Positions 209 through 61,709 of a DNA stretch of 64,000 nt are shown here, piece by piece; the stretch's first letter is position 1; each line of letters starts with the position of its first letter. Made by a program: the position numbers and the translations under genes. Origin of the DNA: Escherichia phage JS98. A model generated the notes under the pieces. That model ran no database searches. It was not told the DNA's origin and saw nothing but the letters and a program-made list of their open reading frames with translations. The stretch lies in the sequence record NC_010105.1, one strand, 5' to 3'.

Positions 209-907
209 TTAGAACGAGTGGCTTGAGCCTGCTTCCATAGCTAATACATAAGAAGCTTGTGTACCTTCAAACTTAGCTGCAAATCGAGCATCCTGACCTT
301 CACCGCGTGCCCATAACAACACATGATAATCGGCTGGCATCATTTTCATATTGGTTTTGTTAATGATGAACTTAAAGTCAGGACCATCATGGTCAGCCAC
401 GACCAGAGAATACAATGGACGAGTTAATTCTTTATCGTCGACTTGTTTATAACCATTGATAACAATTTTACCATCGTCTACAGTGATTGCAAATGTATCA
501 ATACTCAGACCAGAGGACACACGCATCAACTGTTGATAATCTTCGGCTTTCAAATCGAAAATAACTTCAGCCACAGGGAACGGAATAGCTTTACTTGGGA
601 ATGCGATTGTGCTTGGGTCAGCAATAGGCCACTTAATTGTTGAACGTTGGTCTTTAATAATTAATGTGGTTTGGTCTTCACTTACCGAAACTTCAGCACT
701 TTCTGATACCAAAGACAGAATACTTAAGAAGCCATTCAAATCATAGATTGCCGCTTCGATATCGAAGGTATCACTTACAGTGGCTTCACCATAACTTGCA
801 CCGGTAACAGATCGGGTCAGAATGGTGTTACCTGGTTTAAGCATAATGCCTGGGTTAATACCGGAGAAGTTTTTAAGAATGTTCAGGGTTTCTTTAGAGA
901 ATTTCAT
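209..907 (-). CDS. 45: sliding clamp gp45
   Basis: 232 aa, colinear with T4 gp45 (MK.SK.T...LKNF...GIMLK...DLNGFL..LSLV); size and position match. Confidence 0.9.
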   Translation of the reverse strand: MKFSKETLNILKNFSGINPGIMLKPGNTILTRSVTGASYGEATVSDTFDIEAAIYDLNGFLSILSLVSESAEVSVSEDQTTLIIKDQRSTIKWPIADPSTIAFPSKAIPFPVAEVIFDLKAEDYQQLMRVSSGLSIDTFAITVDDGKIVINGYKQVDDKELTRPLYSLVVADHDGPDFKFIINKTNMKMMPADYHVLLWARGEGQDARFAAKFEGTQASYVLAMEAGSSHSF

Positions 908-931
908 AATGTTTCCTTATCAAGTCAAAAA

Positions 932-1393
932 TTAAGCAATAACGATCATTTGTTTACGAATGGATTCAGGCAGAGATTCAATATACTCTGGAATCTGGGA
1001 AGCAACAATAGCACCGGCTTCAAGCAACTGCTCATCAGGGTCGACGCAATAATCATCTTCTAAACGTTCAGAACCGTCGCGGTCGATAACAAGTTTAGCA
1101 CCTGCAGCCAGTGAATCATTATAATGGCGACGCATAATTTCTACCCACTTATCAGATACGTCGTTATCAATAATACCGTAGAGCATGAACTTAGTTTCTT
1201 GTGGAAGAGACTGCAATCGACGTGCGGAGTTGGTATCAATATTCAGTACCCATGATTTACGGATACGGTTCTGATTATGTGGGTTGGAATCAGTACGGAT
1301 GGTTTTAACTTGGATATCTTTAACGGTAACGCCATTAGAAGTAGCAAACATAATATTTTCTCTCATTTGGTTGGTAAATGTATTATAAATCAA
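932..1393 (-). CDS. hypothetical protein at the rpbA position (RNA polymerase-binding protein-like); start may be internal Met
   Basis: 153-aa ORF between 45 and 45.2 as rpbA is in T4; identity positional only. Confidence 0.4.
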   Translation of the reverse strand: MIYNTFTNQMRENIMFATSNGVTVKDIQVKTIRTDSNPHNQNRIRKSWVLNIDTNSARRLQSLPQETKFMLYGIIDNDVSDKWVEIMRRHYNDSLAAGAKLVIDRDGSERLEDDYCVDPDEQLLEAGAIVASQIPEYIESLPESIRKQMIVIA

Positions 1394-1407
1394 TATTTTA
1401 AAGCAAT

Positions 1408-1599
1408 TTAATCAAAGTACTCGTAGACAAACCATGCTGGATTTCTATTTGACATGATTGTAACATATTCTGACTTAAAAGCATTTTGGAGATAATCTTC
1501 AGTAACAAGATGTTCGTCTCCAGAGAAGTTGTTAACTAAAACATATCTCTTTATTTCCGGGGCGGCCAACAAATGCTGGCCTGTTATAAAATCACTCAT
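1408..1599 (-). CDS. small conserved protein at the 45.2 position
   Basis: 63-aa ORF, stop overlaps start region of gene 46 array; positional. Confidence 0.45.
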   Translation of the reverse strand: MSDFITGQHLLAAPEIKRYVLVNNFSGDEHLVTEDYLQNAFKSEYVTIMSNRNPAWFVYEYFD

Positions 1600-3278
1600 T
1601 CCATCACCGTGAATCGTCCAACTTTCTTCATTTGAAGATGTTGGCCATAAGCTTGTGGGTCATGGTCTCGGTGAGAGATAATGAACACGTTCGTATCCTC
1701 AAGGCTATTCAAGATGGTTGCAATGCTCTTAACGCCTTCAGCGTCAGTTGCACTGTCAAATACCTCATCAAGAATCAGTGTGGATATATTAACACCTGAT
1801 ACCCTAGAAGCAATATCACGCCATGTAAAAAGAAGTGCGATATCAATACGTGCTTTCTCACCCTGTGAAAATGAAGCATAACTAAAGTCTTCACGTCCAC
1901 GTGATTTAATCGTCTCATTGAATTCTTCGTCTAGGGTAAAGACGTAGTCCGCTTCCATAATCTTCAAATAAGAATTAATCTGCTTATTAAAGATAGGAAT
2001 GTATTTCTTAATAATGGAACCTTTAATACCGGTATCCTTCAACATTTCTGTCAGAATTCCACGATGATATTTTTCCATTACCAAGGACGATTTGGTAGAG
2101 ACGATTTTATCAAGCTCTGCTTGAAGCGCAGCAATCTCTTCGGCATTACTTACGAACTCAGCTGCTGCCTGGTCAATTAATACCTTAACCTTTTTAGCTT
2201 TCTCTACAGCAGTAATGGCTTGCTGTTTATGAGTAGCTATCTGAGATTTAATAGCCAACGCTTTATTGCGTTGTTCTGCTACTTGGTCTTTAATGAGCTT
2301 GAGCTCTTGGTACTGCTCATTAATCTTATCCAAAGATTTTTGAAGCTCAAAGTTTTTATCCTTAATTTTAGTAAGGATATTACCATGCTCTTCTAACCCT
2401 TGCATACACGTAGGGCAGTGACCACCGGTTTCGTATAACTTAACTACCTTTGTAAAGGTTGCCATATCATTTTTGATTGCAAATCCTTTATTACTCAGGT
2501 CACTCATGGAGTCGCTAGGGTCATCATCTACGATAACATTGAGTAATTCATCAGTCAGGGATTCTATGCTCGCCTTCGCAGTCCTGGCTTCTTTAACGAG
2601 CTCATCATACATTAATTGTAGACGGGCTGCGTTCTCACCAGATAATTTACGTTGACGTTCTTCGTTGTCGTTATAAATTTTAATTTGTTGGGTAATAGAA
2701 TCTTGCTTAACGTCTATTACTTGGATTTGGCTATTAGTCTCACGAATCAAAGATTTATTCAACTTATCCATATCCGCTAATACAGAAACCTCTAAGAGGT
2801 CTTCGACGAGTTTTCTTCTTGCAGGAGTGGATAGGCCCATAAAAGGGGTATATCCAGCTGTGCCGAGTACGACAATTTGTTTGAAGCTTGCATAGGACAT
2901 TCCGATAAGCTGTTCAAATTCCGCTTGGAAGTCTTTACTGCTGGCAGATTCATCAAGACGTTCACCGTCACAAGAGATTTCAAAAACGTTGGGTTTTTGC
3001 CCGCGTTTGATATAGTATTCTTTGCCATCATATTCCATCCACAGTTCGACCAAAAGGTCTTTCTTGTTACTTGAGTTAATCAACTGCCCTTTCTTAACAT
3101 CGCGAAAAGGCTTACCAAACAGAGCAAATGTTACAGCTTCAAGGAATGTTGATTTCCCTGCACCATTTTTACCAGTGACTAAGGTCTTTTGGACCTTGTC
3201 AAGTTGGATTGTAATAGGCTGCTGCCCTACCGACATAATATTTTTATACGTTACTTTCTTAAGCTTAAACGTTTTCAT
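1596..3278 (-). CDS. 46: recombination endonuclease subunit gp46 (Rad50/SbcC-like ATPase)
   Basis: 560 aa; Walker A GKNGAGKST near N-terminus, long coiled-coil middle, C-terminal ATPase signature; same length as T4 gp46. Confidence 0.9.
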   Translation of the reverse strand: MKTFKLKKVTYKNIMSVGQQPITIQLDKVQKTLVTGKNGAGKSTFLEAVTFALFGKPFRDVKKGQLINSSNKKDLLVELWMEYDGKEYYIKRGQKPNVFEISCDGERLDESASSKDFQAEFEQLIGMSYASFKQIVVLGTAGYTPFMGLSTPARRKLVEDLLEVSVLADMDKLNKSLIRETNSQIQVIDVKQDSITQQIKIYNDNEERQRKLSGENAARLQLMYDELVKEARTAKASIESLTDELLNVIVDDDPSDSMSDLSNKGFAIKNDMATFTKVVKLYETGGHCPTCMQGLEEHGNILTKIKDKNFELQKSLDKINEQYQELKLIKDQVAEQRNKALAIKSQIATHKQQAITAVEKAKKVKVLIDQAAAEFVSNAEEIAALQAELDKIVSTKSSLVMEKYHRGILTEMLKDTGIKGSIIKKYIPIFNKQINSYLKIMEADYVFTLDEEFNETIKSRGREDFSYASFSQGEKARIDIALLFTWRDIASRVSGVNISTLILDEVFDSATDAEGVKSIATILNSLEDTNVFIISHRDHDPQAYGQHLQMKKVGRFTVME

Positions 3279-3499
3279 GTATTGTTCTCACGAATTGTTT
3301 GTTCAGCATATTCTAGCATTTCTTCGGAAGAAGCAAACACGTCGTCAAGTTCCATGGCCCATGAAACACCTTCAGAATATTCAGAAGTGACATACATAGT
3401 TCCGGTATACCAAGAACCATCCACGTCCCATTCTACATTACCGAACCAGCCATCGCCAATATGAAAATCATGTTTATACATTTTCATCATTATAAGCAT
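3275..3499 (-). CDS. hypothetical protein (46.1 position)
   Basis: 74-aa ORF packed between 46 and 47. Confidence 0.45.
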   Translation of the reverse strand: MLIMMKMYKHDFHIGDGWFGNVEWDVDGSWYTGTMYVTSEYSEGVSWAMELDDVFASSEEMLEYAEQTIRENNT

Positions 3500-3737
3500 C
3501 CTTGATGCATGATTCAGCCATATGAATTAATGTTTCTGGAGTATCATCTACCATTACATTAAAGCTAAATTCTACAGCCCAATCGGTAGCAACATAAACT
3601 TTAATAAGCTCGCAGGTATCACGAGTGCTCACGGCTTCAAACCAGAACTTAATTGTACTAGGTTGGCCATCATCGTCAATAACTATACAGTCGTGTTCCA
3701 GTTCAAGTCCTGATTTTTTGAATTCATCTAAAGTCAT
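3474..3737 (-). CDS. hypothetical protein (46.2 position)
   Basis: 87-aa ORF packed between 46 and 47. Confidence 0.45.
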   Translation of the reverse strand: MTLDEFKKSGLELEHDCIVIDDDGQPSTIKFWFEAVSTRDTCELIKVYVATDWAVEFSFNVMVDDTPETLIHMAESCIKDAYNDENV

Positions 3738-4756
3738 CGTGTAACCTCATTATAAAGTTGTGCGGTCATAGTCTTAAGGGCTTTAACATCTTCTTCAGTG
3801 TGGCCATCAGGAAGGGCGTCGATATAATCATACATCATATCCAAGAGGGATTTAACTTCATCTTCCTCTTCAGAATCATCGATATCAACACTATTATCTA
3901 CCTTAGACACGATACGTAAAGAGTGAACAACCTTTTCAAGCTCTGATTCGAACTTAGTAAGGCCGTCATCGATTTTATCGACTATAACACGAACTGCGAT
4001 ATTTGTAAAATCTTTGTAATCGATAGTCGCATTAGGATAATGAATCTTACGATGCCAACAGGTTTCATTAATGATGAAATCCATTTTATGAGTTTCGGTA
4101 TCGAAAATCCAGAAACCACGAGGGTCGTTCTCATCACCTGCAGTCAGGGTCCATGGAGTACCAATGTACTTAACGTTTGCTGCATCAGAAATAGTGTGGA
4201 AGTGGCCTGACCAAACTTGCTTATACTTTTTAAGGAAATCAGGTTCTAAACCATGGGATTTCATTCCTTTATAGAAATAGAAACCATTTAATTCCCAATG
4301 ACCAACACAGAAATCTGCTGTAGTATTTTTGATATGGTCCATGATATCAGTCGTGTTTTCTTCACACATCCATGGAATCAAATCAATTTCGGTGCCATCA
4401 AAGTTAACCGTAGTAGGTTTTTCAATAACCTTGATATGGTCATATTTACCCAGAACTTCAGAAGCTGCGTTAGGAGTCAAGGTATTTTTGTAGTGCATAT
4501 CATGATTACCAACAATGGTATACATGGTAATGCCATTAGCTTTAAGCAAATCAGAGATTTCGCGAGCGAATTCCATACACTTATGGGTAATTGCTTTACG
4601 AACGTCAAAGATATCGCCGTATTGAATCCATACGGTAATACCATTTGCTTTAGAATAATCAATAGCGTCTTGGATACCTTGACGTTGGATATTTTGTACC
4701 CACACATCATCGGCCTTCACTCCAAGGTGCCAGTCACCTGTGTTTAATATTTTCAT
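3734..4756 (-). CDS. 47: recombination endonuclease subunit gp47 (Mre11/SbcD-like phosphoesterase)
   Basis: Start taken at MKILNTGDWHLG (ATG at 4754-4756), not the upstream in-frame Met of the ORF track; GDWH and GNHD phosphoesterase motifs; colinear with T4 gp47. Confidence 0.9.
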   Translation of the reverse strand: MKILNTGDWHLGVKADDVWVQNIQRQGIQDAIDYSKANGITVWIQYGDIFDVRKAITHKCMEFAREISDLLKANGITMYTIVGNHDMHYKNTLTPNAASEVLGKYDHIKVIEKPTTVNFDGTEIDLIPWMCEENTTDIMDHIKNTTADFCVGHWELNGFYFYKGMKSHGLEPDFLKKYKQVWSGHFHTISDAANVKYIGTPWTLTAGDENDPRGFWIFDTETHKMDFIINETCWHRKIHYPNATIDYKDFTNIAVRVIVDKIDDGLTKFESELEKVVHSLRIVSKVDNSVDIDDSEEEDEVKSLLDMMYDYIDALPDGHTEEDVKALKTMTAQLYNEVTR

Positions 4757-56263: not shown

Positions 56264-56928
56264 TGACTTTAACTGAAATGAAAAGCGGGTTAAAATCCCG
56301 CTTAGCTGACTATTTGGAATTATCTTACACCAGTGACAAGCCTACTGCTGTTGCTGACCAACGACCTATCGGTGGGCCTTCTGCAAACCAAACCCAGAAG
56401 GGTGTTTATTTTCCTACAGTCCAAAGTGCAATAGATGATATTGCATTTAGAACAGAGCTTCCTGTGAACTCTGTTATTATTACCACAGAAAACAGAGCAC
56501 CTGGATTTATCCAACAATCTGATAAAATTACATTCACCGGTTCTATTTCTTCAGGCGGCGAACTTGGAGACCCGGTTATTATTAAAGTGTTTGGACTTCC
56601 TGTAGAGGTCTTAGTTGGTGATTCATCTGTATTGGTTGCATCTAAAGTAAATGATGTATTTTTAGACGCCATTGCTAATAGCTATATTTTAGCCGAAACA
56701 GCTATTGACGCCTTAGACCAATCTACCTTGAATATTAAATACAATGACTATCAGAATCATATTTTTTCACCATATAAACAATCGGGTTGTACAATTTCCC
56801 ATACTATAGTCCAGCAGCCAAGGGCCGGATATGGTAAGTGGGAATACTTAGGTAACTCTACCCAATCGTTAGCAGGTGGTACAGTTAACGGCACGATTCC
56901 TTTATATTACTATAAGAGATTATATTAA
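56263..56928 (+). CDS. 11: baseplate wedge protein gp11
   Basis: 221 aa, order and size as T4 gp11. Confidence 0.85.
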   Translation: MTLTEMKSGLKSRLADYLELSYTSDKPTAVADQRPIGGPSANQTQKGVYFPTVQSAIDDIAFRTELPVNSVIITTENRAPGFIQQSDKITFTGSISSGGELGDPVIIKVFGLPVEVLVGDSSVLVASKVNDVFLDAIANSYILAETAIDALDQSTLNIKYNDYQNHIFSPYKQSGCTISHTIVQQPRAGYGKWEYLGNSTQSLAGGTVNGTIPLYYYKRLY

Positions 56929-58454
56929 TGTCAACAAACACACTAAAACACATTAGTGATAAATCGGAATTCAAATCATTCGACCCTACTGGGTCGAATT
57001 TCCCGCCTGATATTACTAATGTTCAAGAAGCATTGGCGGCTATTTCATTAATCGGTGTCACGGGTAATGTTCCTTCAGCCACAGAAACATCCCAAGGTAT
57101 TATTCGTCTTGCCACAACACAAGAAGTAATGGATGGGTTGGATGCTTATAGTGCAGTGACTCCAGCAACTTTAAAAGCACGTTTAGATATTCCTACTCAG
57201 GCAACAGAAACTTATGTAGGTATTACCCGTTATGCTACTAATGCTGAAGCTATAGCAGGCACAGAGCCCCAGGCTGCAATCGTAGCAACCTCTTTGAAAG
57301 CGGTAATGGATTATACATTTGAGAACCGTTTATCAACAGAGAACACTACAGGCGTTATCAAGATTTCAACTACACCTGCTGCATTAGCTGGTACCGATGA
57401 TACCACAGCAATGACCCCGCTTAAAGTATCTCAAGCAATTGGTGCGGCCACAGCAGCGTTACCGGTTTATTCTACGGCAACGACCACAAATGAAGGTTTG
57501 GTTCGTTTAGCTACTAATGCTGAAGTTGGCAATGGAAGTCTTTCGGTAGGTATTGCTATTTCTCCAGCCGGATTAGCCACATTAACTTCCACCGAAGCCA
57601 GAAGTGGTATTATTAAACTCGCAGGTTGGGATATGGTATCTAATGGTACTGACCATACTGCCGCTGTTACTCCGGCATCTTTGCTAGCTCGTACAGGTAA
57701 TACAGGACGAATTGGCTTGGTGCGTTTAACTACTACAGTAGGACAAGGCGATGGTAATACGGCCCTGGCTTATAATGCTAACGTTATTTCTACTTCAGGT
57801 GGTGAAATATGGGGTACTTTAAACGTTAATGGCGCATTACGTCGTAATGGTGTTGATGTTGTTACCCATGACCAATTATCAGATAGCGTTCCAGTAGGTA
57901 CTATTTGTATGTGGGGTGGACATGAAGGTAATATCCCAGGCAAATGGCGAGCTTGTGTAGGTGGGACTTATACTGGTGGTGCATATTTAAATGCTGTTGG
58001 TGGACGTTGGGGATGGTGGGGTGCTATTCCAGATTTCCGTGGATTGTATCCTCGCGGCGCTAACATGGTTGGTGGATATTCTGAAGGTGAAGTTAACCCA
58101 CATATTGCCGGTAACCGAGGAGAAGACGGTAAAGGTAAAGCCCGTTTAGGTAACGGTGTAGGTTCGTTCCCACAATCTTCTGTTCAAGCCCAAGCATTAC
58201 GTTATCATAAACACGCCGGTGGTTTTGGTGAACATGATAACTATGGTGCTTTTGGTAACACCGCTAACTCTGGGTATGTTGGTACTCGTAAAGGACTTGA
58301 CTGGGATAACCGTAGTTATTATACTAACGAAGGGTTTGAGACCACTGAACCTTGGAACCGTGATGGCCATACCACACTGAATAGTGAAGGACTTATTGCA
58401 AATGAAACACGTCCTTGGACAATGTCCGTTCTTTTTATTATTAAAGTAGAATAA
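56928..58454 (+). CDS. 12: short tail fibre gp12
   Basis: 508 aa with repeated VTPA(T/S)L-type fibre repeats, order as T4 gp12. Confidence 0.85.
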   Translation: MSTNTLKHISDKSEFKSFDPTGSNFPPDITNVQEALAAISLIGVTGNVPSATETSQGIIRLATTQEVMDGLDAYSAVTPATLKARLDIPTQATETYVGITRYATNAEAIAGTEPQAAIVATSLKAVMDYTFENRLSTENTTGVIKISTTPAALAGTDDTTAMTPLKVSQAIGAATAALPVYSTATTTNEGLVRLATNAEVGNGSLSVGIAISPAGLATLTSTEARSGIIKLAGWDMVSNGTDHTAAVTPASLLARTGNTGRIGLVRLTTTVGQGDGNTALAYNANVISTSGGEIWGTLNVNGALRRNGVDVVTHDQLSDSVPVGTICMWGGHEGNIPGKWRACVGGTYTGGAYLNAVGGRWGWWGAIPDFRGLYPRGANMVGGYSEGEVNPHIAGNRGEDGKGKARLGNGVGSFPQSSVQAQALRYHKHAGGFGEHDNYGAFGNTANSGYVGTRKGLDWDNRSYYTNEGFETTEPWNRDGHTTLNSEGLIANETRPWTMSVLFIIKVE

Positions 58455-58463
58455 GGGTAAAAA

Positions 58464-60719
58464 ATGATTAACAAATTGGAACTTAGTGAGTTACCATTTG
58501 TTGACGGCGTACCTGATGCTCCTCAAAAGCGTATCCAATGGATACGCGAGGGTGATTGTATGTCTGCAGCAAAAACAAAATACGGCAATGAAGGTAATTT
58601 GAACGCTGCTGCTTTAGGAGTTCAGAAAAACGTAGAAGCTCTTGATGCCAACGATTTAAAAACTGCTGATAAAGTTAATGAGCTTATAGAAAACGTTAAT
58701 AATATCAATGACGCTTTAGAAATGTCAACAGATATTTCTATCATTCAACAAATAGAGAAAAACCGTGTTGATATTGTAGACCTTAAAAAAGTCACCGAAG
58801 ATACAACAGAAAAATTAGACACCTTAACAACCAATTTTGATTTCTTGCGTGAAGATGTTGGATACCATGACCCTTTACAAGACGGCCCATATTTAACTGT
58901 ACGTGAAAATATTGTTCTTCTTAAAAATGAAATTGGTCACTATGAGGACCAGGATATAAACGGTAATCCTTTACCTCCGGGTGAAACTAGTGAAGCCACT
59001 GGTATAAAACGCCGCATCATGGATAATACCACTGAATTGGTGGACCACCGTCTTCGTATTGATACCCTTGAAAGAAACTATGAAGATTCTGATGTTGGGC
59101 AATTAGGTATTAAACTAAATGAAATTCGTGCCGAATTAGGACCACATTCTGATACGGTAGGTAAACAACCCGCTTACACCCGAATTTCAGTATTAGAAAC
59201 GGCTGCAGTTAATTTTAATACGGCTATTGACGAAATTAAGGATAATATTGATTTCTCTGGTATGCCTATAAAGGACCGAGTAACTACTTTAGAAAGCAAA
59301 ACCTTTACCTTAGAAAATTCAGTTAACGTTGATTTAAAACCTAGAGTAACTTCTATAGAAACTCAAATCGGTTCTGAGTCTGCACCAGCATCTATTAATG
59401 GACGTTTAAGTGGGCTTCGTACTGATGTAAATGATTTAAAAACCGTTGTTGGTAATAGTTCTAGTGAAGGGCTTCGTTTCCAGGTTTCCGATATTAATCG
59501 ACGCCTTGGTAGTGAAGTGTCTCCTGCAGCTGGCACTATTAATAAGCGTTTGAATGATGTTATTATTCAAGCAAACCAATCTACCTCATCCATCCAGGAT
59601 ATTCAGGTAGAAATTGGTAACAACCAATCCGGTATAAAAGGTACTTTGCTTAAGCTCACAAATAAGGTTGACGGAACGAACCCTAACGGAGCTACCGTAG
59701 AAGAACGTGGTCTTATTAATGCGGTTACTTCTTTAGAAACCCAGATGCAAGGTAAATTAGGTGACGCGCCTTCTGATGGTAAACTCTATGCACGTCGAAA
59801 TGCGGCATGGGCTGAAGTTGTTAATAATTCCACAGAAATAGAAACTGTTAAAGCCGATTTGGTTGTTACTAATGGTAAAGTGACCGCTTTAACTTCTAGA
59901 GTAGATGATAACGATACTTCTATTTCATCTCTTAATACTCGCACCACTGCTCTAAATACTTCGGTTGGTGAGATTAAAGCCGATATAGTTACTATAAAGG
60001 CCAAAGATGTTGAACAGGACGGTCGTTTAACTTCTTTGGAAGAGGCTGATGTTACTATTAACGGTAAAATTGCTGCTCTTGAAACTAAGACAGATACCAC
60101 TGATGATGATGTCACAGCACTGGCTTTAGACGTTTCTTCTTTAGAGAACCAATTGACTCCTATAAAAGCCGATATTACCAAAAACAAAGGTGATATTGTT
60201 GCCTTAACTGGTCGAGTGGCTTCTACTGAAGGTGAAATTACCGCAATTAAAGTTGATACAGCCAAAATTGCTCCTTTAACAACTAGAGTTACTACGGCAG
60301 AAGGTAAAATCACTACTTTAGAAACAGGGCTTGCCGCTGTTAAAGTCGAATCCGATAAAGTAGCAGGAATCAATACCCGCCTTGGCACTGCAGAAGGTGA
60401 CATCGGAACACTTAAAACAGGGTTGGCTGAAGTTAAGGGTGAATCCGATAAAGTAGCAGCTATAGATACCCGTTTGGGTGTTGTTGAAGGCGAAGTTGGT
60501 ACTCTTGAAACAGGTTTGGCTGCTGTTAAAGTTGAATCTGATAAAGTTGCTGACTTAGGAACCCGTTTAACCGCTGCCGAAGGTAAAATTACAGCCTTAG
60601 AAACAGAATTATCTAAACGTCCACCGGTGGCTCCTGCCGCAGACGGACTTCCGTATGTTCTGGTTGATAACGCATGGGTATTATTGTCTGATTTTGTGAC
60701 TTTAAACTCAGCACCATAA
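58464..60719 (+). CDS. wac: fibritin (neck whiskers) wac, extended form
   Basis: 751 aa; N-terminal LSELPFVDGVPDA as in T4 fibritin, long heptad coiled coil, C-terminal foldon-like PYVLVDNAWVLLSDF. Confidence 0.8.
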   Translation: MINKLELSELPFVDGVPDAPQKRIQWIREGDCMSAAKTKYGNEGNLNAAALGVQKNVEALDANDLKTADKVNELIENVNNINDALEMSTDISIIQQIEKNRVDIVDLKKVTEDTTEKLDTLTTNFDFLREDVGYHDPLQDGPYLTVRENIVLLKNEIGHYEDQDINGNPLPPGETSEATGIKRRIMDNTTELVDHRLRIDTLERNYEDSDVGQLGIKLNEIRAELGPHSDTVGKQPAYTRISVLETAAVNFNTAIDEIKDNIDFSGMPIKDRVTTLESKTFTLENSVNVDLKPRVTSIETQIGSESAPASINGRLSGLRTDVNDLKTVVGNSSSEGLRFQVSDINRRLGSEVSPAAGTINKRLNDVIIQANQSTSSIQDIQVEIGNNQSGIKGTLLKLTNKVDGTNPNGATVEERGLINAVTSLETQMQGKLGDAPSDGKLYARRNAAWAEVVNNSTEIETVKADLVVTNGKVTALTSRVDDNDTSISSLNTRTTALNTSVGEIKADIVTIKAKDVEQDGRLTSLEEADVTINGKIAALETKTDTTDDDVTALALDVSSLENQLTPIKADITKNKGDIVALTGRVASTEGEITAIKVDTAKIAPLTTRVTTAEGKITTLETGLAAVKVESDKVAGINTRLGTAEGDIGTLKTGLAEVKGESDKVAAIDTRLGVVEGEVGTLETGLAAVKVESDKVADLGTRLTAAEGKITALETELSKRPPVAPAADGLPYVLVDNAWVLLSDFVTLNSAP
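60322..60600 (+). repeat. three tandem 93-bp (31-aa) repeats inside wac coiled-coil region
   Basis: AAACAG repeat landmarks at 60322, 60415, 60508, 60601; units TGLAAVKVESDKVAGINTRLGTAEGDIGTLK / TGLAEVKGESDKVAAIDTRLGVVEGEVGTLE / TGLAAVKVESDKVADLGTRLTAAEGKITALE. Confidence 0.7.
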
Positions 60720-60720
60720 T

Positions 60721-60742
60721 AAAAGGGCTTCGGCCCTTTTTT
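60721..60742 (+). terminator. rho-independent terminator after wac
   Basis: AAAAGGGC-TTCG-GCCCTTTT hairpin plus T-run. Confidence 0.65.
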
Positions 60743-60744
60743 GC

Positions 60745-60752
60745 TATAAATA
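60745..60752 (+). promoter_or_regulatory. late promoter TATAAATA for gene 13
   Basis: TATAAATA about 22 nt upstream of gene 13 ATG. Confidence 0.6.
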
Positions 60753-60773
60753 CGGTTATTAGAGGAATAAAAC

Positions 60774-61709
60774 ATGGCAAGTGAATCATATAACCCTAAG
60801 CAACTCAAGGACGCTATTCTGCGCCGCCTGGGTGCACCGATTACAAATATTGAAGTAACTACTGACCAAGTATATGATTGCATCCAGAGGGCTCTAGAGC
60901 TCTACGGCGAATACCATTATAACGGGTATAACAAAGGTTATCAGGCTTTTTATATCGGCCATGACGATGAAGAAAAATTCCGTAATGGCGTATTCGACCT
61001 TAAAGGACGTAATATATTTGCAGTAACACAAATTTTGAGAACTAATGTAGGTTCTTTAACATCTATGGACGGGCAAGCAACTTATCCATGGTTTACAGAT
61101 TTTGTACTAGGTTTGGCAGGTATTAATGGTGGTCTTGGGTCTTCATGTAACAGCTTTGGACCTAATGCCTTCGGCGCTGACCTTGGTTATTTTACACAAT
61201 TAATGCAATATCGTTCTATGATGCAGGACCTTTTGGTTCCACTGCCTGATTATTGGTATAATGATGCCACTGAACAATTGAAGGTAATGGGCAACTTTGT
61301 TAAAGGCGACTTTATTGTAATTGAAGTTTATACCCGTTCATTTAATGGCGTTGATTCCATGGTCGGGAATACAGCAGGATATGGATACGCTTCCGGTGGC
61401 TGTGACGAAAATGAATGGAGTCCTGGGGCTATTTGGGACAATCCTGCACGTCGAATTTCAGGAATGAGAGCTGGTGAGGACCTTGGACTACAAGATGGTG
61501 CGTATAATAACCGTTGGGTCAAAGATTACGCTACGGCATTAGTTAAAGAGGTCAATGGTAATATTTTAGCCAAACACCAAGGTATGCAATTAGCTGGCGG
61601 AACCACTGTAGATGGCATTCGATTGATTGAAGAAGCTCGTTTAGAAAAAGAACGTCTTCGCGAAGAATTAGATTTGCTCGACCCACCAACACCTATTTTA
61701 ATTGGATAA
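60774..61709 (+). CDS. 13: neck protein gp13
   Basis: 311 aa, order and size as T4 gp13. Confidence 0.85.

Follow-up and report, generated by a model that had tools for sequence, protein, structure and literature searches.

The wac gene of Escherichia phage JS98 was analysed within a stretch of 64,000 nucleotides of record NC_010105.1, which is called the window here. It occupies positions 58464..60719 on the + strand and encodes fibritin, the neck whisker protein, of 751 amino acids (aa) plus stop. We propose, with a probability of about 0.85, that JS98 Wac is a T4-like fibritin with its own foldon-like cap, followed by a 265-aa coiled-coil extension and then by a second foldon, and that recombining modules in the extension, named A and B, set the length of the protein. 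The architecture as such is already known, having been published for JS98 itself (PMC3797505), and in annotation the protein is best described as a JS98-type (double-foldon) fibritin. What is new here is the 17+14-aa structure of the modules, the strings that they form in 20 relatives, and the junctions left by recombination, details that are incremental.

The assignment of this open reading frame (ORF) to wac can be considered secure, because phmmer matches T4 fibritin (2bsg_A) to JS98 Wac with an E-value of 4.8e-73 and the Pfam family Fibritin_C scores 100 bits on it (cut-off 21). In a protein search the product shows 100% identity over 100% of its length to P0020, "fibritin neck whisker [Escherichia phage JS98]". 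A first-pass annotation of this DNA had already named the gene correctly, and its comparison of 751 aa with about 487 aa in T4 is confirmed by the ORF and by the 487 aa of T4 fibritin in PDB entry 2bsg_A. Megablast places the gene in the genus Dhakavirus, the JS98/JS10 group of T4 relatives, with NC-G as the top phage match (97.6%).

Two foldon-like motifs and the extension between them

Most of the T4-like part of the protein is covered by a single colinear phmmer alignment, of aa 5-428 of JS98 Wac (58476..59747, + strand) to residues 4-430 of T4 fibritin. This part comprises the N-terminal neck-attachment domain and the segmented coiled-coil shaft; the structures 1ox3 and 2ibl, of N-terminal fragments of T4 fibritin, match aa 6-68 (E about 1e-13). 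The Fibritin_C match lies at aa 371-454, and is thus internal rather than C-terminal. It covers positions 2-92 of the 93 of the profile and ends at aa 454, where a first foldon-like motif is found (foldon 1, aa 434-453, DAPSDGKLYARRNAAWAEVV; 59763..59822, + strand). This motif resembles the T4 foldon, EAPRDGQAYVRKDGEWV. When foldon 1 was searched against the PDB, the fibritin matches aligned at the T4 foldon with E-values of 0.28-0.6, which are weak because the query motif is short; the top match overall was 8rk3, a DUF2793 protein (E 2.5e-4). AlphaFold2 (AF2), run on aa 400-751 as a monomer with 26 homologues (mean predicted local distance difference test score 84), predicts a beta-hairpin in foldon 1 (442-445 / 448-451). 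The shorter relatives point the same way. Single-foldon fibritins of 455-459 aa (e.g. Pectobacterium phage PM2, P0038) are homologous over about 60% of JS98 Wac. They carry the motif as their C-terminal foldon at about aa 438 (aa 436-441), where JS98 Wac has foldon 1, and these proteins end right after it, with no extension.

In JS98 the chain continues with a spacer, aa 455-718, that is predicted to be helical (AF2 helices at aa 455-543, 548-597 and 599-717) and is heptad-patterned, compatible with a parallel homotrimeric coiled coil. Part 1 of this spacer, aa 455-594 (59826..60245, + strand), appears as a heptad coiled coil by autocorrelation (peaks at lags 7, 14, 21, 28, 42, 49 and 63; z 4.7-6.6), by AF2 and in the relatives; its 140 aa have the same length in all long forms of the protein. 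Part 2 is the array of A and B modules. A Pro-rich linker (RPPV) and the C-terminal foldon 2 follow at 60618..60716 (+ strand), as identified by phmmer, AF2 and 26 homologues, across which they are invariant. The core of foldon 2 (aa 723-745, APAADGLPYVLVDNAWVLLSDFV; 60630-60698, + strand) contains a second predicted beta-hairpin (aa 731-734 / 737-740), and the C-terminal 25 aa give phmmer matches to T4 fibritin M and foldon entries (1avy, E 0.006; 1rfo; 4ncv). With these foldon matches, the hairpin and the heptad pattern, the earlier proposal of a foldon-like C-terminus, with repeats in the coiled coil just upstream of it, is supported.

T4 fibritin (487 aa; PDB 2bsg, 1aa0, 1avy, 1ox3, foldon 1rfo) and JS98 Wac are colinear in the N-terminal domain and shaft. 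They also have in common a terminal foldon-like motif, P-x-x-DG-x-x-Y...W-V-L-L-S-x-F, and in both phages wac lies between genes 12 and 13. The T4 protein has a single foldon, separated from the equivalent of aa 428 by about 27 aa of coiled coil, whereas in JS98 Wac a foldon-like motif stands right after aa 428 and is followed by an additional coiled coil of 265 aa and by the second foldon. Compared with the T4 foldon, foldon 1 of JS98 retains the acidic/Arg pair (D...R) and lacks the WVLLSTFL tail; foldon 2 retains the tail, and V...L replaces the D...R pair.

The first-pass annotation had seen in JS98 Wac a fibritin lengthened by its repeats, in other words a single-foldon T4-type fibritin whose shaft was recently extended by three near-perfect tandem 31-aa repeats before the foldon. 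It is true that a 93-bp period lies directly upstream of the C-terminal foldon and that the protein is 264 aa longer than T4 fibritin. However, the repeat units number four, are only 57-73% identical in DNA and contribute 124 of the 264 extra residues, the rest being the further 140-aa coiled coil and the second foldon. The internal foldon-like motif at aa 434-453, to which the Fibritin_C match extends, comes right after T4 colinearity ends, so that the extension begins behind a foldon-like motif, and short forms of 514-529 aa, which have no array, keep both foldon motifs. We consider this explanation very unlikely. A T4-like fibritin stretched before a single foldon was rejected as a candidate, as the T4-homologous part ends at aa 428 and the foldon-like cap is at 434-453.

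Another explanation is that aa 455-751 form a separate product, either because a sequencing error fused a downstream gene to wac or because cleavage after the internal foldon leaves T4-sized whiskers. Such a product would fit with the internal motif standing exactly where shorter relatives terminate, and with the extension having its own trimerisation motif. We give it very little credence, given that the frame is open and continuous in 17/17 genomes examined and in the metagenome proteins, that no stop, start or ribosome-binding signal is present at the junction, and that PMC3797505 treats JS98 fibritin as one two-foldon protein and reports its trimerisation.

A continuous protein with two foldons is indeed how JS98-type fibritin was defined by Letarov & Krisch 2013 (PMC3797505), who cite the JS98 protein accessions: two T4-like foldon motifs are separated by a coiled-coil spacer of variable length. 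JS98 fibritin trimerises through the foldon motifs without a chaperone (PMC3797505), and spacer length differs among JS98-like fibritins, for which the same paper cites Latypov et al. 2007. The protein studied here is the same one; the two foldons (aa 434-453 and 723-745) and the variable spacer are all found, and there is no difference in kind. In the passages of PMC3797505 on this type of fibritin the spacer is not dissected. In the literature library that was searched, nothing beyond PMC3797505 was found on Dhakavirus whiskers or on repeats of the JS98 spacer. Current understanding is not overturned by the present results, and the feature is real, ordinary and known already.

Alternation of foldon-like motifs with coiled-coil spacers, as in JS98, is also seen in other relatives (P0034-P0036 and P0041, with two motifs). 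In these proteins and in P0069 the spacers are shorter or unrelated, and A/B modules were not detected. P0069, a metagenome protein of 1016 aa, has three foldon-like motifs, at aa 684, 850 and 979, and foldon chains with spacers thus exist beyond the JS98 type.

The 93-bp array and its heptad register

The A/B module array, aa 595-718 (60246..60617, + strand), was delimited with repeat finders, lag identity and relatives. It is made of four units of 31 aa (93 bp), all on the + strand: unit 1 at 60246-60338 (IKVDTAKIAPLTTRVTTAEGKITTLETGLAA), unit 2 at 60339-60431 (VKVESDKVAGINTRLGTAEGDIGTLKTGLAE), unit 3 at 60432-60524 (VKGESDKVAAIDTRLGVVEGEVGTLETGLAA) and unit 4 at 60525-60617 (VKVESDKVADLGTRLTAAEGKITALETELSK). 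Tandem Repeats Finder reports a period of 93 at 60339-60583 (2.2-2.6 copies, 73-75% matches), and a repeat-family search returns three 93-nt copies at 60294-60572 (65-72% identical). DNA identity at lag 93 is 0.58-0.74 in the repeat region versus 0.30 +/- 0.05 in the rest of the gene, and at lag 31 the protein reaches z = 16 versus shuffles. All four measures agree with the 93-bp periodicity that had been noticed in the 3' third of wac. The description of the repeats as three near-perfect copies does not hold. In protein register there are four units, and their pairwise identities are 57-73% for DNA and 48-71% for protein; in the register first proposed (60322-60600), identity among the copies is 66-71% for DNA and 61-71% for protein. 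At most 19 bp of uninterrupted DNA identity is common to two JS98 units. The repeat is real, but old and diverged.

Each unit can be divided into a 17-aa module A, VKVESDKVAGINTRLGT, with two heptads and a 3-residue insertion (break), and a 14-aa module B, AEGKITTLETGLAA, with two clean heptads. A phase scan gives as core positions V1(d), S5(a), V8, I11(d), L15(a), A18(d), I22(a), L25(d), L29(a) and the next V1(d). V8 takes position d in the run before it and position a in the run after it, and therefore one extra 3-residue step is made per unit (31 = 4x7+3). The heptad phase is thus shifted by 3 once per unit, at a fixed site, the conserved K-(V/G)-E-S-D-K. We take this break to be a stammer-type discontinuity of coiled coils. 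In the AF2 monomer the predicted helix runs continuously through the breaks. T4 fibritin itself has a segmented, interrupted coiled coil (PMC3004832).

The first-pass annotation had suggested that repeat copies out of register with the heptad pattern would speak against its reading. An unbroken canonical heptad register is indeed absent, in the trivial sense that 31 aa is not a multiple of 7. The break, however, is located at the equal site in every copy, and the copies are mutually in register because each unit has its own fixed 3-residue break. Judged from this pattern, such a test as it was worded does not refute the coiled-coil reading, which would be left standing.

The A module is also present in proteins of 543-558 aa, P0004 and P0005, of the Yersinia phage vB_YenM_P8 type. 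Their spacer, after an internal foldon-like motif with DN instead of DG, opens directly with an A module, IKLDTAKIAPLTTRVTT. Since the spacer of these two proteins begins in this way, A/B modules are shared outside Dhakavirus.

Length series and recombination between modules

The wac gene was taken from 16 related genomes, together with five database proteins, and the segment from aa 595 to the linker was parsed into A and B modules. Among the Dhakavirus relatives Wac length ranges from 514 to 827 aa, and the spacer alone accounts for the differences. The shortest string, ABAB, is that of PSD2002 (689 aa). It is followed by ABABAB in IME540, MX01, dhabil and P0027 (718-720 aa), ABBABAB in UP19 (734 aa) and ABABAAB in vB_EcoM_005 (737 aa). 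JS98 has ABABABAB, like NC-G and the 749-aa metagenome protein P0030 (749-751 aa). Longer strings are ABABAABAB in EcWhh-1 and VR5 (768 aa) and ABABAABABAB in JS10 and IME08 (799 aa), and the latter string plus 7-aa half modules is found in Ec2-ASingh and Esco_phi_B-01 (827 aa). In every relative with a long form, aa 595 is where the array begins. All long forms conserve the first and the last unit, and turnover is confined to internal units. The short forms of 514-529 aa have no repeat array, yet have both foldon motifs. In the 529-aa forms (Bp7, KIT01, MN04), aa 481-702 are absent, and the junction falls in the motif LT(S/T)RV|TTAE, which is common to spacer part 1 and module A.

One of these short forms deserves a separate remark. 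MN04 (MT129654.1) is assigned to the species Dhakavirus JS98, and the 5' part of its 529-aa wac is only about 86% identical to the window. Judging from MN04, wac appears to be exchanged mosaically among otherwise close genomes.

Several junctions can be read at the level of DNA. JS98 and EcWhh-1 wac (96.7% identical) are distinguished by a single, exact indel of 51 bp, with the direct repeat CGTTTGGGTG(T/A)TGTTGAAG at its flanks. The third B module of JS98 is a hybrid, with its 5' part from JS10 B4 and its 3' part from JS10 B5, and the 93 bp between them are absent. NC-G has 751 aa like JS98, but a different internal unit: its third unit matches the fifth of JS10. Exact 51-bp and 93-bp indels are thus seen in wac genes that are 93-97% identical, and all length variants are in frame and respect module boundaries. 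On their sequence pattern, we regard these junctions as signatures of out-of-register homologous recombination or slippage between modules. That recombination of modules changes whisker length is argued by the indels being in register, one of them flanked by a direct repeat and one junction being a hybrid.

The following mechanism can be proposed. Because the modules hold short tracts of DNA identity, homologous out-of-register recombination or replication slippage would add or remove complete modules (A, B or AB) and, in some cases, half modules of 7 aa. As a crossover would join equivalent positions of two modules, the hydrophobic core pattern would be retained, and the trimeric fibre could still fold from the terminal foldon after the change. 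The outcome would be a series of whisker lengths across the genus.

Assembly errors classically arise in tandem repeats and some of the related records are flagged UNVERIFIED, and one may ask whether the repeat number was wrongly collapsed or expanded in assembly. This is extremely improbable for JS98. The units differ at 27-43% of bases and have at most 19 bp of exact identity, so that ordinary reads place them uniquely; the string ABABABAB is also found in the independently sequenced NC-G (751 aa) and in P0030 (749 aa); and every length variant is in frame, at module boundaries.

In T4, the conserved N-terminal domain of fibritin (about 50 aa) anchors the trimer at the neck, and the fibre forms the collar and whiskers, which aid long-tail-fibre attachment and hold the long tail fibres in the retracted state when conditions are adverse; fibritin touches the long tail fibre near the knee with its C-terminal part, and its foldon nucleates trimer formation (PMC3004832, PMC3797505). 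The collar/whisker role of the JS98 protein, in long-tail-fibre attachment and retraction, is presumed from these T4 data. The extension would be a parallel trimer in the virion and would add roughly 1.5 A per residue, so that an AB unit would measure about 4.6 nm and the 265-aa JS98 spacer about 39 nm; the entire T4 fibre is 53 nm long. Foldon 2 would nucleate trimerisation and contact the long tail fibre, as in T4.

Wac length was compared with that of gp34, the proximal half of the long tail fibre, in the same genomes, and no covariation was found. The gp34 gene spans 3969-4053 bp: 3972-4053 bp with a 529-aa Wac, 4050-4053 bp with a 720-aa Wac and 3969-3972 bp with Wac of 751-827 aa. Within the genus, Wac length thus varies by 60% (514-827 aa) and gp34 length by 2%. 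Given these figures and the lack of covariation, the extension might have a role other than holding the fibre knee, e.g. tuning the conditions of fibre release or touching surfaces. This belongs to a reading that we consider speculative and rather unlikely, in which spacer length is non-neutral: the A/B array would be a recombination-set ruler that fixes where the terminal foldon stands with respect to the long tail fibre or another target, and the internal foldon would be an in-line clamp or hinge that frees the distal segment.

Some points weigh against a double-foldon fibritin with its length set by recombining modules. Foldon 1 is without the hydrophobic tail WVLLSTFL of T4, and may not fold as a true foldon. 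The AF2 model, of a monomer only, has a predicted template modelling score of 0.28 and is silent on the trimer and on the fit of the 3-residue breaks in it. Whiskers of such unequal length would all have to hold the fibre knee, and gp34 does not track them. The alignment gives no direction of the module changes, gain versus loss. Finally, exact identity between modules is short, 14-41 bp across all genomes, and recombination between them should therefore be infrequent. The tandem repeats had been thought to allow rapid change of whisker length by unequal recombination; of this proposal, the recombination is retained, in view of the in-register 51/93-bp indels and the hybrid junction, and the rapidity is not.

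For biology, the module series provides a natural set of whiskers, of about 514 to 827 aa, on otherwise similar virions, with which the influence of whisker length on the attachment and retraction of the long tail fibres could be studied. For the engineering of proteins, it offers a natural foldon that is tolerated mid-chain, and a coiled coil lengthened in steps of 7, 14, 17 or 31 residues with its register kept.

The antisense frame and the surroundings of wac

A 365-aa ORF runs antisense to the 3' part of wac (59786..60883, - strand); from the ORF list, its composition and the relatives, it is not a gene. A stop in this frame needs a sense codon starting with TA or CA after a codon ending in T or C. 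Such codons number 4 in the last 310 codons of wac versus 28 in the first 441; Tyr and His are absent from the extension, and Gln makes up only 0.8% of it. In relatives the antisense open stretch tracks the length of the spacer, from 149 codons in the 529-aa forms to 483 in IME08, and in most of them it ends at the Leu441-Tyr442 codons of foldon 1. It is the composition of the entire extension, and not specifically that of the repeats, which gives rise to the antisense ORF as a by-product. The earlier claim that the repeats create a spurious long antisense ORF was thus right as to its existence and spurious nature; the cause is the Tyr/His/Gln-poor extension as a whole.

That the ORF is a real overlapping gene, served by the repeat structure, has a negligible probability in our view, even if it has 365 codons with an ATG and the annotation of phage IME540 lists it as a hypothetical protein. 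No Pfam family was matched by its product, and the sense codons, which include no Tyr or His and hardly any Gln, explain why the antisense frame is open. Its length follows that of the spacer, and the frame is broken at differing sites in NC-G, VR5, Ec2-ASingh and Esco_phi_B-01. Such a gene would, moreover, start inside gene 13, cross the wac terminator hairpin and oppose the structural genes of the + strand (gp12 ORF, wac, gene 13 and the ORFs after). Codon-position counts between units are uninformative on antisense coding and cannot decide it, because the antisense frame shares its wobble position with wac.

The antisense counterpart in IME540 (MT150133.1, locus 1923-2927, minus strand) is annotated as "hypothetical protein" (QJA42695.1), likely an annotation artefact. 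The IME540 GenBank record calls the long antisense ORF as a gene, which should be avoided in annotation.

In the window wac is preceded by a gp12-like ORF of 508 aa (56928..58454) and followed by a gp13-like ORF of 311 aa (60774..61709). The order gp12 / wac / gp13 is annotated likewise in NC-G, JS10, VR5, MX01 and others; in NC-G and other records the neighbours are annotated as gp12 short tail fibre and gp13 neck protein. Direct folding showed a hairpin, AAAAGGGC-UUCG-GCCCUUUU, with a T-run at 60721-60740 (+ strand), immediately behind the stop of wac (-11.1 kcal/mol, z -2.1). A terminator scan did not call it, the G+C stem having only 4 pairs. Further downstream, TATAAATA, which we take to be the T4 late-promoter consensus, is found at 60745-60752 (+ strand), 22 nt upstream of the ATG of gene 13, which stands at 60774. 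In the window as a whole, TATAAATA occurs 7 times where 7.4 occurrences are expected by chance, and a late-promoter reading of this copy therefore rests on its position.

Three further observations were made around wac in this and related records. In IME08 (HM071924.1, locus 600-3068), the annotated wac start lies 69 nt too far upstream and overlaps gene 12. As annotated, this wac begins with LVTKTVLG...; the conserved start MIDKLSIKELPF at locus 669 gives 799 aa, not 822. In vB_EcoM_005 (MK295203.1, locus 3169-3826), gene 13 is broken up into two "neck protein" coding sequences and the genome is only 155 kb, which suggests a frameshift or an assembly problem in this record. In the window, a 27-bp tandem repeat (2.1 copies, 80% matches) is located at 58218-58273, near the 3' end of the gp12-like ORF.

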